From: Nitrosopumilus maritimus SCM1
GTDB lineage: Archaea; Thermoproteota; Nitrososphaeria; Nitrososphaerales; Nitrosopumilaceae
Direction of reading: 5' to 3'
Length of the DNA stretch: 32,000 nt
NCBI RefSeq assembly: GCF_000018465.1
Contig: NC_010085.1
Location: 840,001 to 872,000 of the forward strand
In this document: piece after piece, positions 9,754 through 17,502 of the stretch
Position numbering within the stretch: position 1 is the stretch's first letter
Layout: every line of letters begins with the position of its first letter
Notes under the pieces: model-generated
Seen by the model: the letters and a program-made list of their open reading frames with translations, nothing else
Databases searched by the model: none
What the model was told of the DNA's origin: nothing
Position numbers and translations under genes: made by a program

Positions 9754-10653
9754 TTACTCCAAGTTTAGAGGAATACTTGCACTACCAAAGTCTTCTGCGA
9801 TTCTAAAGACATAATCTTTTGAAGAATCATATTCAAATTCGGTTCCACCATATCCAATATTTGGACCAAAGAGTATGTTAAACTCTCTTGCATCACCTGG
9901 ATTTAGCACAATTTGTCCACTGGTAAAGTCCATGCCAGAGTACTTGTAGGCCTTTGAGCCATCCCATACATCATATGCACATATTTGAGGACTAGTACAA
10001 TTTAGAGCGGCAATTTCAGAACTGGTGTTCTCAGCAAGCATTCTAACAGACAATAGAGGTTGTCCTGTAGCAGTAATCTCAAACTCATTTCCTTCAGAAC
10101 CGACTCCAGTCCAATAATATGTGATTGGTCCCAAGTCGAATTTTTGAGCTCCAGATTTGTATTCATGTACTTTGATTGCTTGTTTGAGTGGTTTTTCACA
10201 ATCTAGTCTTTTGTAGGCTTTGGTAATTTCAGAACATTGTTCAAGTTCAGCTTCTAATGATGCTAATTTTGAATCAGTGTTTTTTGGTTCATCAGACATT
10301 ATTGGTTGTTCTGATGTTAATGAAACAGAAAGTAATCCAAATTGAATCAAATGCTGTACACCGTTAACAAATTCACCATCAGAGATTGTTCCATCTGCCC
10401 ACCATCCTGCATTGTTCTTAACCCAAGCTGGGACACTATCGGCAGTTTCAGAAGATACAGTAGTGGTAGGAACTGTAATTATTCCATCAGAAATCAAAAA
10501 AGCAATTCCTGTGAGAAATTCAGATTCAGATATGACTCCTTCTGCCCACCATCCTGCATTGTTCTTAACCCAGCCTGGTACTTCAGCATATGCAGAAGAT
10601 ACAGTTGTTGCAACCAGTAAAATTGCAGCGATTGCAGTTATTGCGGTTTTCAT
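9754..10653 (-). CDS. secreted protein with two WW repeat modules (VPxWVKNNAGWWAxGxISxxEF...) and a Cys-containing C-terminal domain
   Basis: 299 aa. Signal peptide MKTAITAIAAILLVATTVSSAYA. Internal 49-aa (147-nt) duplication. Tandem TTTAGCACTAG boxes plus a TATA box lie directly upstream. Confidence 0.75.
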   Translation of the reverse strand: MKTAITAIAAILLVATTVSSAYAEVPGWVKNNAGWWAEGVISESEFLTGIAFLISDGIITVPTTTVSSETADSVPAWVKNNAGWWADGTISDGEFVNGVQHLIQFGLLSVSLTSEQPIMSDEPKNTDSKLASLEAELEQCSEITKAYKRLDCEKPLKQAIKVHEYKSGAQKFDLGPITYYWTGVGSEGNEFEITATGQPLLSVRMLAENTSSEIAALNCTSPQICAYDVWDGSKAYKYSGMDFTSGQIVLNPGDAREFNILFGPNIGYGGTEFEYDSSKDYVFRIAEDFGSASIPLNLE

Positions 10654-15044: not shown

Positions 15045-15082
15045 TTTAGCACTAGAAAAAGAGGTTAGCATTAGTTATATAA
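15045..15082 (+). promoter_or_regulatory. tandem 11-bp boxes (19-bp period) abutting the TATA box of the B12-binding protein gene
   Basis: TTTAGCACTAG (15045-15055), 8 nt, GTTAGCATTAG (15064-15074), then immediately TTATATAA (15075-15082). ATG at 15102, a spacing consistent with a leaderless mRNA. Confidence 0.7.
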
Positions 15083-15101: not shown

Positions 15102-15944
15102 ATGGTCTACATACGAGCAAAAAAGGTAAAATCAGACCAATATCTGTATCTAGTCAAAAGTGTATGGGACTCAAAAAAGAGCACATCAAAACAAGAAATT
15201 GTCAAATATCTTGGAAAGGCATCGGAAGTTGTAAAAGATGACATTCCAATAGATTATAGAAATGATCCCAAAGTATTATCAGTTTTAGCATCTTACAATC
15301 CAAAAGATATCAAGAAAAGAGAAGACGCAACAAAGAAATCAAAACAACAACTATACAAGAAACTAACTGAAGGGAGTATTCAAGATTGTGTAAAAATTTA
15401 TGAAGAATATATTAAAATTTTTAATGCATCCGATTTCTTTGATAGAATTCTAAAACCCACAATGTATAGAATTGGTGATGAATGGTCCATAGGTAAAATC
15501 AGCATAGCCACAGAACATGTTGCAAGCAATGTTGCTCAAACACTTGTAAAAATAATAATGGACCAAGTATCATCTGGTGGAAATAAAAAGAAAATTCTCA
15601 TATGTGTTCCATTAGGAGAAGAACATCATTTAGGATGCGATGTATTAGAAACATATCTATCAATTAAAGGATTCAAAATTTTTAATATGGGAACATCAAT
15701 GCCAACAGAATCAATTCTTAGTTTCATTGACAACAATAAACCAGATGTTGTGTTGGTATCAATCACATTAGAAGACAACCTAGCAGCAGGGCAGAGATTA
15801 GTCAAAAAAATAAGTGACCATACAAACATTCCCATACTAGTTGGTGGCTATGCACTTCAAGCAAAGAAAATTCCCAAATTTACAGGCCAGATAATTCCAG
15901 ATTGCGGTCTTGAGGAAGTTCCTAAAATTTTAAGAAAGATTTAA
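15102..15944 (+). CDS. CarH/LitR-like coenzyme-B12-binding photoreceptor-type protein with a non-MerR basic N-terminal domain (candidate transcription regulator)
   Basis: 280 aa. W128-x9-E138-H139 (GDEWSIGKISIATEHVAS), then E173-x-H175-x-x-G178, x41, S220-I-T222, x25, G248-G249. The N-terminal 45 aa are basic (MVYIRAKKVKSDQYLYLVKSVW...KYLGK). TATA TTATATAA starts 27 nt before the ATG. Confidence 0.8.
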   Translation: MVYIRAKKVKSDQYLYLVKSVWDSKKSTSKQEIVKYLGKASEVVKDDIPIDYRNDPKVLSVLASYNPKDIKKREDATKKSKQQLYKKLTEGSIQDCVKIYEEYIKIFNASDFFDRILKPTMYRIGDEWSIGKISIATEHVASNVAQTLVKIIMDQVSSGGNKKKILICVPLGEEHHLGCDVLETYLSIKGFKIFNMGTSMPTESILSFIDNNKPDVVLVSITLEDNLAAGQRLVKKISDHTNIPILVGGYALQAKKIPKFTGQIIPDCGLEEVPKILRKI

Positions 15945-16003
15945 GTTTATTTTAAAACTGCATAGTGGTAAATTAAATCAACTTTTATTAAAATTAGTCA
16001 TAA

Positions 16004-16014
16004 ATTAGCACTAG
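16004..16014 (+). promoter_or_regulatory. single ATTAGCACTAG box upstream of an AT-rich box, in the spacer before the TFB cassette
   Basis: Exact TTAGCACTAG 10-mer, followed by TTATTAAAATAAA about 15 nt downstream. Confidence 0.5.
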
Positions 16015-16203
16015 AATCCAATTTTTTTGTTATTAAAATAAAACAAAAACAAAAGAAAAGTAGAGTATAAAATGGAATCAACATATGCAGTAATTGCAGA
16101 TACAAAAAAAGAATTACTCAAAATGATATCTAAAAAAGAATGTGAACAAACGTTTGCTCTAATTGTAACCACATCGTGATATTATTTACAATAAAAGAAT
16201 AAA

Positions 16204-16214
16204 ATTAGCACTAG
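16204..16214 (+). promoter_or_regulatory. single ATTAGCACTAG box upstream of the zinc-ribbon mini-ORF/TFB operon
   Basis: Exact 10-mer, exactly 200 bp after the copy at 16004. Followed by AAAAAATATTTT and CTTAAATAAT boxes, with the ATG at 16262. Confidence 0.55.
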
Positions 16215-16261
16215 AAAAAATATTTTCTTTCTCTTAAATAATTTCAAAACAAAATTAATTC

Positions 16262-16414
16262 ATGAAACAAGAATTGATTCAGGAAAATAAAAATGAATTA
16301 AAAATCAAAAATAAGAATGTAAAAATTTGTATCAATTGTGGAAATTCAAAAGTTGATTCACATGAATATGGAATTTCATGTGAAGATTGTGGTATTCTTT
16401 TGTGGAGAGAATAA
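16262..16414 (+). CDS. stand-alone zinc-ribbon mini-protein (50 aa), TFB-ribbon-like
   Basis: Own translation: MKQELIQENKNELKIKNKNVKICINCGNSKVDSHEYGISCEDCGILLWRE, with CxxC-x13-CxxC. The stop lies 1 nt before the TFB ATG at 16416. CTTAAATAAT box about 25 nt upstream. Below the ORF-track length cutoff. Confidence 0.45.
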   Translation: MKQELIQENKNELKIKNKNVKICINCGNSKVDSHEYGISCEDCGILLWRE

Positions 16415-16415
16415 A

Positions 16416-17327
16416 ATGATTACAGAACTTGTACATCAAAAGAGTTGTAAAAAAAACAAGATTGTAACTGATCTGAATACAGGAGAGATTGCATGCACGA
16501 ATTGCGGTGCAGTACTCTCTGAAAGAGTAGTTGACAGTGGTCCAGAAAGTCTAGGGATGACTGGAGAAGAATATCAAACCAACAGTAGAGTTGGAAGAAA
16601 AATTTCATTAAAAATGATAGACATGGGATTATCAACCATTATTGAGGCTAAAGACAAAGATGCAACAGGAAAAGGGCTATCAAATGAGAACAAGAGAATG
16701 TTTTATCGCCTAAGAATGTGGGATAGAAATAGTCGTTCTGCAAGTACCGCCAAATCATTTCAAAAGGCATTCACCATGCTTGATGGAATCAGTGCTAAAC
16801 TAGGACTTCCAGAGCCAGTAATAGAACAAACTGCATATCTATTTAGAAAAATTGCTGCAAAAAAGATTCTTGCAGGAAGATCTACAGCAGGGATTCTTTG
16901 TGCAGCAATTTACATCACATGCAGAATGACAAATACACCAAGAACTTTACAAGATGTGGCAAATGCTGGAAATGTAAATAAAAAAAACATTCAAAGAACA
17001 TACAGATTTCTTGCAAGAGAATTAGACATTACACCAGAAATTTATCATCCAACAGAATTTGTAACACGAATTGCAAAGGCAGTAGACATCTCTGAGAAAA
17101 CAGAAAGATTGGCATTTAGAATTTTAGATCTTTCTGCAAGAAACGGAGTATTAGAAAGTAAAAATCCAATGGCAATGGCTGCTGCTGCAACATATCTCGC
17201 ATCAGTAAAAAACGATGAAAGAATTTCTCAGTTAAAAATTTCCAAAGTCTCTGGCATTAGTGCAGTTACAATCAGAGATAGAACAAAAGAAATTTTGAAA
17301 AAGATAGGAGGTGAAATTAATGGGTAG
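16416..17327 (+). CDS. tfb: transcription initiation factor B paralog with a degenerate N-terminal zinc ribbon
   Basis: Two cyclin-like repeats (RSTAGILCAAIYITCR, NPMAMAAAATYLA). The ribbon reads SCKKNK...CTNCG, so the first knuckle is CxxN rather than CxxC. GPESL replaces the usual GPEWR. I prefer ATG 16416 to the track start 16338, which overlaps the mini-ORF in another frame. Confidence 0.9.
   Translation: MITELVHQKSCKKNKIVTDLNTGEIACTNCGAVLSERVVDSGPESLGMTGEEYQTNSRVGRKISLKMIDMGLSTIIEAKDKDATGKGLSNENKRMFYRLRMWDRNSRSASTAKSFQKAFTMLDGISAKLGLPEPVIEQTAYLFRKIAAKKILAGRSTAGILCAAIYITCRMTNTPRTLQDVANAGNVNKKNIQRTYRFLARELDITPEIYHPTEFVTRIAKAVDISEKTERLAFRILDLSARNGVLESKNPMAMAAAATYLASVKNDERISQLKISKVSGISAVTIRDRTKEILKKIGGEING
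17307..17313 (+). promoter_or_regulatory. Shine-Dalgarno-like GGAGGTG, 6 nt upstream of ATG 17320
   Basis: GGAGGTG lies inside the 3' end of the TFB gene. This suggests coupled translation of the downstream Cys-rich ORF. Confidence 0.5.
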
Positions 17328-17502
17328 GACATGTAGGGGAATTTGTGAAATGCATCAAGCAATACCAGTTCCAAATAAAATTAGATATGAGATTGGACAA
17401 AAAAGATGTACATTTTGTGGCATATTCATGTCAACATGTGATGCAAGATGTATGTGTTGTAAAGCAGTACTTAGAACAAAACCAAGGAGTAAGAAAAAGT
17501 AG
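17320..17502 (+). CDS. small cysteine-rich (putative zinc-binding) basic protein
   Basis: 60 aa: MGRTCRGICEMH...KRCTFCGIFMSTCDARCMCCKAVLRTKPRSKKK, with 8 Cys and a basic tail. Overlaps the TFB stop by 8 nt and is preceded by an SD-like sequence. Confidence 0.55.
   Translation: MGRTCRGICEMHQAIPVPNKIRYEIGQKRCTFCGIFMSTCDARCMCCKAVLRTKPRSKKK

Follow-up and report, generated by a model that had tools for sequence, protein, structure and literature searches.

A B12-binding regulator, a specialised TFB and a small cysteine-rich protein in a locus of Nitrosopumilus maritimus SCM1 that resembles a light/UV response circuit

Ammonia-oxidising archaea rank among the most numerous microbes of the sea and are light-sensitive; to our knowledge, however, a regulatory circuit that senses light or UV has yet to be described in them. 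In bacterial light and singlet-oxygen circuits an ECF sigma factor is paired with a zinc anti-sigma factor (ChrR, RsrA), and haloarchaea possess zinc-finger micro-proteins of approximately 60 amino acids, such as Brz of Halobacterium and HVO_2753 of Haloferax, some of which are needed for light-related gene expression. An example of a circuit in which a B12 photoreceptor switches on an ECF sigma factor is provided by LitR and LitS of Streptomyces (PMC11519972), and among archaea Sulfolobus has TFB3, a TFB paralogue induced by UV, which activates the response to DNA damage (PMC6101591, PMC6101594). The N. maritimus SCM1 locus presented here has the appearance of a light/UV response circuit not described before in archaea.

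The window analysed is a stretch of 32,000 nucleotides (contig NC_010085.1, positions 840,001 to 872,000 of the forward strand), and all positions below are counted from its first letter. A sequence-only reading of the window had described three consecutive ORFs as one cassette behind a box-bearing promoter, and the ORFs, both boxes and the coupling signals were all found where they had been placed:

15102..15944, + strand: Nmar_0978, candidate B12-binding regulator (Pfam B12-binding and B12-binding_2; CarH-like cofactor module, non-MerR N-terminus)
16005..16014, + strand: distal TTAGCACTAG box, exact match, preceding a 35-codon ORF
16072..16179, + strand: candidate small ORF of 35 aa, flanked by the distal and proximal boxes
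16205..16214, + strand: proximal TTAGCACTAG box of the operon promoter, exact match, 57 nt from the first ATG
16234..16241, + strand: TATA-like TTAAATAA, with the ATG 20 nt downstream
16262..16414, + strand: ORF of the 50-aa C4 zinc-ribbon mini-protein, which has no row in the RefSeq-based gene table
16404..16409, + strand: GGAGAG, a Shine-Dalgarno-like element read from the sequence, within the final mini-ORF codons, which would serve the TFB
16416..17327, + strand: Nmar_0979, TFB paralogue (Pfam) with a putative His/Cys3 ribbon and a changed BRE-recognition helix
17307..17313, + strand: GGAGGTG, Shine-Dalgarno element serving the Cys-rich gene, within the C-terminal codons of the TFB (…GGEING)
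17320..17502, + strand: NMAR_RS05245, 60-aa zinc protein (8 Cys; tail KPRSKKK) whose start overlaps the TFB stop

The three ORFs do form one cassette behind the box-bearing promoter and beside the B12-binding regulator. As had been described, the mini-ORF encodes an intact CxxC-x13-CxxC ribbon (MKQ…KICINCGNSKVDSHEYGISCEDCGILLWRE) and stops 1 nt before the TFB, its TAA (16412-14) being followed by a single A and then by the TFB ATG at 16416. The 60-aa downstream protein likewise has its eight Cys, basic tail and overlap with the TFB stop, and its ATG overlaps the last TFB codons. The GGAGGTG said to precede this gene is present as well, albeit one base off the position that had been implied. 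Relatives of the 35-aa ORF were found by tblastn in the two nearest genomes only (G108, 55% identity; G085, 45%), both of which also have a second box upstream.

Nmar_0979 is a full-length protein of 303 aa. Its two TFIIB cyclin repeats are matched by PF00382 (TFIIB; E=2.4e-36, two stretches), and the N-terminal ribbon scores 35.8 bits with PF08271 (Zn_Ribbon_TF) against a cut-off of 29, whereas the NCBIfam TFIIB subfamily model gives 274 bits, below its 384-bit cut-off. The ribbon does not have the four-Cys ligand set (CxxC…CxxC), and it had been regarded as crippled through the loss of one Cys of the first knuckle. The loss itself is real, but alignment with the seven other TFBs of the genome demonstrated that it is the first Cys of the canonical CPxC that has been replaced (by Q), the second one being kept; a conserved His immediately precedes the replaced residue (HQKSC). 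Nor is the ribbon freshly crippled, since the H-x3-C…C-x2-C pattern is the same in every one of the 41 orthologues found, and the contrary case that had been envisaged, in which orthologous TFBs retain four Cys, does not occur among them. Together with the C-x-H…C-x2-C pattern of the sister clade, this fixation points to a His/Cys3 zinc site, in which zinc would be bound through the His. The replacement of GPEWR by GPESL had been noted correctly; however, this B-reader motif is missing from four of the eight TFB paralogues of this genome (Nmar_0979, Nmar_0013, Nmar_0517 and Nmar_1341) and is therefore not a defining feature here. One of these paralogues, Nmar_0517, has even been called the dominant planktonic TFB (PMC12448741). 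The recognition helix of Nmar_0979 reads GISAVTIRDRTK as compared with GVTEVTIRNRYK. The protein evolves under purifying selection (dN/dS 0.03-0.19); its orthologues share the start M-x-T-E-L-x-H, and most of them keep the GGEING tail.

The TFB is followed by a gene of the NMAR_RS05245 type, overlapping its stop, in all of the 41 orthologous loci, and this gene too is conserved (dN/dS 0.03-0.25). Seven Cys are conserved across the family, with eight in this copy, which matches the signature C-x3-C … RY-x2-GQKRC-x2-C … C-x-CC … LRTKPR; Y23, C30, C33, C44, C46, C47 and L51-R52-T53 are invariant in the alignment. The family comprises 1617 representative clusters and has 13 genomic matches in N. 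maritimus (12 by local ORF search), about 11 of the paralogues adjoining no TFB. Both NMAR_RS05245 and NMAR_RS00095 carry the label Thaumi_prot_LH_FAM000186 (PMC12448741 Dataset S4). Searches with NMAR_RS05245 returned nothing in Pfam or NCBIfam, its database names are all “hypothetical”, and its AlphaFold2 model (pLDDT 83.9) has no significant fold match in Foldseek (best E about 1). Ferredoxin-like Fe-S binding was considered and rejected, as the PDB sequence matches were at chance level (best E=0.007) and driven by an extra Cys that is not conserved in the family. Long members of the family bear Lys-rich, histone-H1-like basic tails. A family of 159-aa proteins (at least 30 clusters) combines the Cys-rich domain with a TFIIB cyclin repeat in one fused chain, the repeat scoring 36.6 bits with Pfam against a cut-off of 23.6. 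This fusion was not found among 500 sampled genomes (150 from the order and 350 from the family, with 10 of about 20 candidates per genome scored in the latter), and the genes that flank it suggest a Nitrosopumilaceae-like host. Five genomes, four of them with the arrangement intact, carry the operon as the TFB, the Cys-rich gene and a DenV-type UV-dimer glycosylase with an ATGA overlap.

The 1.645 Mb genome contains 9 copies of the TTAGCACTAG box, compared with a single occurrence of the reversed control. Six copies are intergenic, and all of them are confined to 9 kb of the window; the three exact boxes outside the window were discarded as regulon members, since they appear intra-coding by sequence context. 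In most of the related loci examined, the first ATG of the operon is preceded at 57 nt (57-59) by an exact or one-mismatch box, irrespective of whether the first ORF is the mini-ribbon or the TFB. Relatives likewise keep a TATA-like motif, cTTAAATAAttt, with its offset unchanged. As the TATA-to-ATG spacing of 20 nt fits, the operon mRNA is, on sequence grounds, probably leaderless or near-leaderless. The operon promoter has one box approximately 19 nt upstream of TATA, whereas in front of Nmar_0978 and Nmar_0973 a double box abuts TATA (the double boxes lie at 15046/15065 and 10684/10703), so that the mode of control at the operon may differ. The box regulon consists of a T4-endoV-type UV-dimer glycosylase, YbgA, Nmar_0973, an NmrA-like protein, the B12-binding regulator and the TFB operon, the domains Pyr_excise and DUF1722 being found among the box genes. 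In most relatives an operon with an amine-oxidase-family gene lies divergently, behind an inverted box. The cluster also encodes a BtuF-like cobalamin-binding protein, Nmar_0976.

The box-bearing genes are co-regulated in published RNA-seq data comparing biofilm with planktonic growth (PMC12448741 Dataset S4), a comparison that reports no light variable. The log2 fold changes, biofilm versus planktonic, are -3.1 for Nmar_0969, -3.7 for Nmar_0973, -4.1 for Nmar_0974, -3.6 for Nmar_0977, -5.5 for Nmar_0978, -2.4 for Nmar_0979 and -2.7 for NMAR_RS05245; the box-less neighbours Nmar_0971, 0972, 0975, 0976 and 0980 are flat, and Nmar_0970 is up by 2.5.

The cofactor module of Nmar_0978 contains both PF02310 and PF02607, and the NCBIfam CarH model aligns over residues 78-257 with 58.5 bits, far below its equivalog cut-off of 400. 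Residues 1-75 gave neither a MerR-family match nor a significant Pfam match. Among same-genus relatives, a TFB orthologue is present in 12 of 12 genomes with the regulator and in none of the 8 without it, although these counts overstate the support because the relatives are not independent; where the two co-occur, they always lie within about 3 kb of each other. Given the position of the cassette beside the regulator, this phyletic co-occurrence and the co-regulation of the box genes, a circuit of the LitR/CarH type, with an alternative TFB acting as the initiation factor, is a reasonable hypothesis.

The 50-aa mini-ORF is a real but dispensable gene. Upstream of the TFB, G108, G085 and G114 have intact C4 orthologues and G112 has a CxxW variant; nine gene-called metagenomic homologues were also found. 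A frameshift artefact of a longer TFB was rejected as its origin, since it lies in a different frame and is conserved separately, and the TFB starts are shared. The sequence-only reading had proposed that the free ribbon supplies a B-ribbon in trans to the defective TFB or competes for the RNA polymerase dock. The C4 ORF does stand directly before the TFB and is coupled to it, Nmar_0979 does lack one canonical Cys, the mini-ribbon has a weak match to Pfam Zn_Ribbon_TF (16.3 bits, E=0.007, under the 29-bit cut-off) and hhalign pairs both knuckles; nevertheless, this explanation seems highly improbable. The consistent link or fusion to the TFB that had been looked for in relatives is lacking, as no more than 5 of 41 genomes have an intact or CxxW mini-ribbon ahead of the TFB. 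In 35 of the 41 orthologous operons it is absent (30), Cys-decayed (3) or reduced to a remnant (2), and yet 41 of 41 TFBs keep the His/Cys3 ribbon pattern under purifying selection. Conversely, two genomes (G097 and G064) retain the mini-ribbon and the Cys-rich gene with the TFB body deleted, their mini-ribbon proteins ending in GGEM(D/N)G, which is the TFB tail, and at 18 of the 20 other loci of the mini-ribbon family it is a Cys-rich family gene, not a TFB, that comes next. The resemblance to B-ribbons is only generic: the Cys pairs are 13 residues apart instead of the 15 of TFB ribbons, hhalign against the TFB ribbons of the same genome gives a probability of 27.6% with the knuckles alone aligned and two gaps, and the AlphaFold2 model is a generic ribbon of moderate pLDDT (74.8), the four other models being poor. 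Foldseek returned no significant match for it, the best being RPA12, TFS4 and L37ae-type ribbons, with TFIIB ranked 38th. Alternatively, the upstream ORF might be mainly a translated leader whose first ATG is initiated directly and from which ribosomes re-start at the TFB, the peptide being secondary. Such a role is suggested by the 57 nt between box and first ATG in each of the examined operons with a recognised box, by the end of the ORF, which always falls between -8 and +6 of the TFB start, and by the GGAGAG inside its final codons. Moreover, three genomes keep a 51-codon ORF despite the loss of one to three Cys, with TTG as the TFB start, two further ones have remnants of 34-36 codons ending at the TFB start, and in the alignment the C-terminal G/W-R-E codons are kept even where Cys have decayed. 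As a general account the leader is quite unlikely, though: 30 operons manage without it, the mini-ribbon family also occurs at loci without a TFB, and between intact copies dN/dS is 0.10-0.23 with all four Cys invariant (0.37-0.71 in Cys-decayed copies), which indicates that in the intact copies the peptide itself is selected, in line with the earlier expectation that the mini-ORFs be conserved in relatives under purifying selection.

The Cys-rich protein, with or without the mini-ribbon, could also be a zinc- or redox-sensitive antagonist of the TFB, an archaeal counterpart of anti-sigma factors. Its strict 1:1 coupling to the TFB in 41 genomes, the seven family-conserved Cys, the precedent of the bacterial ECF sigma/zinc anti-sigma pairs and a paralogous pair of mini-ribbon and Cys-rich genes beside a Fur-family gene are in agreement with such a role. 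We nonetheless consider it very unlikely. A domain joined in cis to a TFIIB cyclin repeat is easier to reconcile with a functional component of an initiation factor than with an inhibitor, most of the Cys-rich paralogues are not adjacent to a TFB, nucleic-acid binding is suggested by the basic, H1-like tails, and the H-x3-C-x2-C anti-sigma motif is absent. The nature of the signal deserves similar consideration, since the regulon might answer to a cue other than light (cobalamin supply, oxidative stress or growth mode), with the B12 domain sensing cofactor status. The sole expression contrast being that of biofilm and planktonic growth, the BtuF-like protein in the cluster and the CarH model score far under the cut-off would all be compatible with this. 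A non-light cue nevertheless appears rather unlikely in view of the UV-dimer glycosylase and YbgA among the regulon genes, the joining of the glycosylase into the TFB operon in other species, and the divergent amine-oxidase-family operon behind an inverted box in most relatives.

The reading we favour, and hold on balance to be probable, is that of a three-cistron coupled operon encoding a specialised TFB and a zinc partner, placed within a box regulon under a B12-binding regulator. It builds on the observed gene anatomy, conservation, box position, co-occurrence, co-expression and domain fusion. The operon, with its three translationally coupled cistrons, would be transcribed into a probably leaderless mRNA from a promoter ordered as TTAGCACTAG box, spacer of about 19 nt, TATA box, 20 nt and ATG. 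Its main products would be the specialised TFB Nmar_0979, with its putative His/Cys3 ribbon and altered BRE-reading helix, and the Cys-rich protein as an obligate companion, whose family appears tied to TFB by operon coupling and natural domain fusion; contact between the two proteins is inferred. Most likely, the B12-binding protein would sit on the boxes and release them, or change its grip, upon a signal, which is probably light acting through cobalamin. UV-damage genes and the alternative initiation factor would then be induced jointly, and a further tier of genes could be driven by the TFB and its partner. The intact mini-ribbon would be an optional first cistron, a zinc-ribbon partner of the Cys-rich family rather than a detached B-ribbon, and in its Cys-decayed form it may act as an upstream ORF that hands ribosomes over to the TFB start. 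A bolder reading, tentative and somewhat unlikely at present, is that the seven-Cys family constitutes an undescribed archaeal initiation module working with, or in place of, the TFB ribbon, together with a light/UV cascade of B12 regulator and TTAGCACTAG operator and with the mini-ribbon as an optional third subunit. The module would then be mostly free-standing, TFB-coupled here and fused to a cyclin repeat elsewhere, and the cascade would run from the sensor to the alternative TFB with its zinc cofactor and on to the repair genes.

In a literature search, the locus tags Nmar_0969, 0973, 0974 and 0977-0979 were not mentioned in the main text of papers, and the SignatureFinder paper on B12 photoreceptors does not mention archaea. 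The locus would represent a concrete circuit with a candidate cobalamin photoreceptor, a 10-bp operator, a UV-repair regulon and an alternative TFB as second-tier regulator, and with it a first functional handle on why ammonia-oxidising archaea keep eight TFBs. For a very large unnamed family of small zinc proteins it also provides a first context, in that members are coupled or fused to TFB. The first cistron, lost in some operons, decayed in others and retained in a few, appears to offer a clear natural case of a small gene being reduced to no more than a translational leader.

When compared with the LitR/CarH systems, the locus is alike in that the gene of a cobalamin-binding regulator adjoins that of an alternative initiation factor, in that an operator is repeated at its own promoter and at the promoters of co-regulated targets, and in that the targets protect against light damage. 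It differs in that the initiation factor is a TFB instead of an ECF sigma factor, the regulator has a non-MerR N-terminus and a CarH score of 58.5 against 400 bits, and the targets are UV-repair genes, not carotenoid genes. With Sulfolobus TFB3 it shares a non-housekeeping TFB paralogue tied to a UV/DNA-damage programme. TFB3 is reportedly truncated and without the DNA-binding cyclin core, whereas Nmar_0979 is full length with both cyclin repeats, belongs to a different lineage, is not orthologous, and is accompanied by small zinc proteins as obligatory partners and by a recognisable operator. Like canonical archaeal TFB and eukaryotic TFIIB, Nmar_0979 has a zinc ribbon, a B-reader/linker region, two cyclin repeats and a C-terminal HTH; unlike them, it has its first Cys ligand replaced next to a conserved His, lacks GPEWR and reads RDRTK in the recognition helix where the canonical sequence is RNRYK. 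Finally, the mini-proteins resemble Brz and HVO_2753 as zinc-binding proteins of about 60 aa; however, no sequence or fold relationship to these is detectable, and both mini-proteins are without a Pfam, NCBIfam or PDB match.

The operon of the TFB Nmar_0979 lies on the single contig of the N. maritimus genome (G000; 1,645,259 bp, GC 34.2%; window at C1:840001-872000), and its ORFs, starts, stops and motifs were borne out as the sequence-only reading had described them. A published gene table (PMC12448741 Dataset S4) places NMAR_RS05245 ("hypothetical protein") and then Nmar_0980 (YchF) here, and lists nothing between NMAR_RS05235 and NMAR_RS05240, the position of the 50-aa ORF.

Features of the operon (window positions; GGAGAG and GGAGGTG were read from the sequence)
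16262-16414 (+): 50-aa ORF ("mini-ribbon", CxxC-x13-CxxC); stop TAA at 16412-14, one base before the TFB ATG
16404-09 (+): GGAGAG ahead of the TFB start
16416-17327 (+): TFB Nmar_0979
17307-13 (+): GGAGGTG ahead of the Cys-rich gene
17320-17502 (+): NMAR_RS05245, 60-aa Cys-rich protein; ATG at 17320, within the final TFB codons (AAT GGG TAG)

According to Pfam, Nmar_0979 is a full TFB, with two cyclin repeats and a ribbon domain above threshold. Its alignment with the genome's seven other TFBs confirmed that one Cys of the first zinc knuckle is gone, but the surviving Cys is the second and the first is replaced (HQKSC vs KCPAC). Within the genus, 100 genomes were searched and gave 41 orthologues (64-95% identity) and a sister clade (54-59%). 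The ribbon pattern H-x3-C-(K/N/R)…C-x2-C-G was found in 41/41 orthologues, so the ribbon, previously described as crippled, is a conserved variant and not a lesion; dN/dS of the whole TFB is 0.03-0.19. All four sister-clade members carry C-x-H…C-x2-C. Since a His is retained beside the lost Cys in two clades, at two different positions, the pattern argues for a His/Cys3 site in Nmar_0979, in which the His would bind zinc. A second paralogue with a non-C4 first knuckle, Nmar_1341 (G000 1229190-1230119, + strand, outside the window; matched by position to the TFB list of PMC12448741), reads YCFKNNH…CCSDCG, with one Cys and a nearby His; His-substituted ribbons thus recur among TFBs of ammonia-oxidising archaea. 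The replacement of GPEWR by GPESL is likewise present but not distinctive, as Nmar_0013, Nmar_1341 and Nmar_0517, the dominant planktonic TFB (PMC12448741), also lack GPEWR. The BRE-reading helix is GISAVTIRDRTK in Nmar_0979 versus GVTEVTIRNRYK in canonical paralogues, which suggests a different promoter preference.

The Cys-rich gene directly follows the TFB in all 41 orthologous operons, overlapping its stop by up to ~8 nt, and the product begins MGR from a start codon within the overlap. With dN/dS of 0.03-0.25, it is conserved beside the TFB. Searches of Pfam, NCBIfam and PDB returned no relatives of the protein. Its family has 13 genomic matches in N. maritimus (12 by local ORF search) and 1617 representative clusters at E ≤ 0.001; within the order it occurs in four families and in none of the others sampled. 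The aligned signature is C-x3-C … RY-x2-GQKRC-x2-C … C-x-CC … LRTKPR. Longer members bear Lys/Ala/Thr-rich, histone H1-like tails, which suggests nucleic-acid binding. The AlphaFold2 model is confident (pLDDT 83.9, pTM 0.62), and Foldseek against PDB gave nothing specific (best E ~1, RanBP2-type fingers and L40e).

The same domain also occurs fused to a TFIIB repeat. Protein P0261 (159 aa), encoded by a complete, mid-contig ORF (513-992 of metagenomic locus L089), consists of a complete Cys-rich domain and then one cyclin repeat (PF00382, E=4.8e-9; score 36.6 bits, cut-off 23.6). The fusion family (P0261, P0265-P0293) comprises at least 30 clusters of 51-91% identity, nearly all 158-164 aa long, with 7/7 Cys invariant. 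It was seen solely on short metagenomic contigs; a search of 500 sampled reference genomes, in which part of the candidates were scored, did not turn it up. The product of a gene flanking the fusion shares 72% identity with a protein of N. maritimus. The natural fusion, together with the strict operon coupling, places the Cys-rich domain functionally close to transcription initiation.

The mini-ribbon, judged from its conservation, is a real gene. An intact C4 form precedes the TFB in relatives G108 (92%), G085 and G114, and a CxxW variant in G112; nine homologues were gene-called in metagenomes. Intact pairs gave dN/dS of 0.10-0.23, a rough estimate (50 codons, dS often saturated) that fits purifying selection. 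On the tree of TFBs, with the sister clade as root, the basal clade includes three genomes whose ORF, of exactly 51 codons, has decayed Cys (VCDSD…CKNCG, ESSSDS…SSRNCG, GYNPRI…CKNCT) and two with 34-36-codon remnants; in the main clade, intact copies are scattered among 30 operons without any. Decayed copies have dN/dS of 0.37-0.71. The mini-ribbon is therefore optional, and steady co-occurrence with the TFB holds for the Cys-rich gene but not for the mini-ribbon. In the examined operon forms with a box, ORF1 runs up to the TFB start, its end falling at -8 to +6. The TFB start codon of the decayed clade is TTG, which fits a leaderless mRNA whose first cistron would hand ribosomes to the second.

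The usual neighbour of the mini-ribbon is the Cys-rich family, a member of which it immediately precedes or overlaps at 18/20 further loci in the genus, several adjoining a Fur-family gene. In G097 and G064 the Cys-rich gene follows the mini-ribbon directly, and the mini-proteins end in GGEMDG or GGEMNG, the C-terminal tail of the TFB; hence a deletion removed the TFB body and left the pair in place. In G064 a sister-clade TFB (G064:C2:112902-113759, L065) lies ~6 kb away, preceded by a box of its own (TTAGCACTAT) at -57, and is possibly a functional replacement. The suggestion that the ORF encodes a TFB-like free B-ribbon was not supported: it scored 16.3 bits against the Pfam TFB ribbon model (cut-off 29), hhalign with TFB ribbons gave a gapped alignment of 27.6% probability, and Foldseek returned no significant match for its model, TFIIB ranking 38th. 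By these comparisons its likeness to B-ribbons is generic.

Many Nitrosopumilus genomes (L038-L040, L070-L086), N. maritimus not among them, carry a paralogous, translationally coupled pair beside a divergent Fur-family regulator (mini-ribbon MQIQ…RICVNCGN…; Cys-rich partner …CRSVCGYYDA…CPCCHKSF, without the basic tail), which hints at metal-linked control of this sister module.

The genome holds nine copies of the 10-nt box TTAGCACTAG versus one of its reversed control, and all six intergenic copies lie inside the window. As reported in PMC12448741 Dataset S4 (log2FC, padj, TPM biofilm, TPM control), exactly the box-bearing genes drop jointly in biofilm.

Boxes and expression of the genes concerned
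Nmar_0969, pyrimidine-dimer glycosylase: box before gene; log2FC -3.13
Nmar_0973: two boxes between it and Nmar_0974; log2FC -3.71; TPM biofilm 428, control 7510
Nmar_0974 (YbgA/DUF1722): log2FC -4.11
Nmar_0977: log2FC -3.63
Nmar_0978, B12 regulator, 15102-15944 (+): box before gene, near-copy 19 nt on; log2FC -5.46; TPM biofilm 3.4, control 185
Nmar_0979: boxes at 16005 (distal) and 16205 (proximal); log2FC -2.36; TPM biofilm 19, control 139
NMAR_RS05245: log2FC -2.67; padj not given

Nmar_0971, 0972, 0975, 0976 and 0980, which are interspersed with these genes and lack a box, are flat and Nmar_0970 is up; the main text of that paper reports no light regime for the biofilm/planktonic experiment. 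Box-controlled Nmar_0973 (9754-10653, -) has no Pfam match, and its planktonic level, with a 13-fold drop in biofilm, is among the highest in the listed stretch.

At most related loci examined, a box (exact or with one mismatch) and, after it, cTTAAATAAttt precede the operon, whose first ORF begins 57 nt past the box; an inverted box usually lies ~43 nt upstream. Every examined operon form in which a box was found has its first ATG at this distance (57 nt, range 57-59). Behind the distal box, a 35-codon ORF (16072-16179, +), conserved solely in the two nearest relatives, G108 (46-aa ORF, 55% identity) and G085 (45%), may be a further small regulon gene or a remnant. In most relatives (L002, L005-L007, L010, L032-L037 and others) a divergent operon of three genes, with an inverted box (CTAGTGCTAA) in front, lies upstream of the TFB operon, encoding a 119-aa protein (MPHIV…), a ~150-aa protein and a flavin amine-oxidase-family enzyme (phytoene-desaturase superfamily); of the three, the 119-aa protein was searched for in N. 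maritimus, and no homologue was detected. In G106, G066, G065 and G084 the operon continues from TFB and Cys-rich gene into a DenV-type glycosylase, the same as box-bearing Nmar_0969, with overlapping stop and start (ATGA); it is broken in G015.

Among 24 same-genus relatives, the B12 regulator lies within ~3 kb in 12/12 genomes with the TFB orthologue, the TFB occurs in 0/8 without the regulator, and three carry a homologue of the regulator but no such TFB, although these counts are not independent, the genomes being related. The cobalamin-binding regulator Nmar_0978 would bind the TTAGCACTAG boxes and control a small, presumably light-dependent photodamage regulon. One output would be an alternative TFB with an obligatory zinc partner, perhaps in contact with it; together they could steer RNA polymerase towards additional promoters. 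The mini-ribbon would assist the Cys-rich protein as an accessory partner and also serve as translational leader. The circuit parallels bacterial LitR and LitS (PMC11519972) in function, not in membership: Nmar_0978 lacks the MerR domain of LitR/CarH and scores far below the cut-off of the CarH model. Sulfolobus TFB3, which is UV-induced (PMC6101591, PMC6101594), offers a parallel of the same kind, functional and not one of membership, Nmar_0979 being full length.
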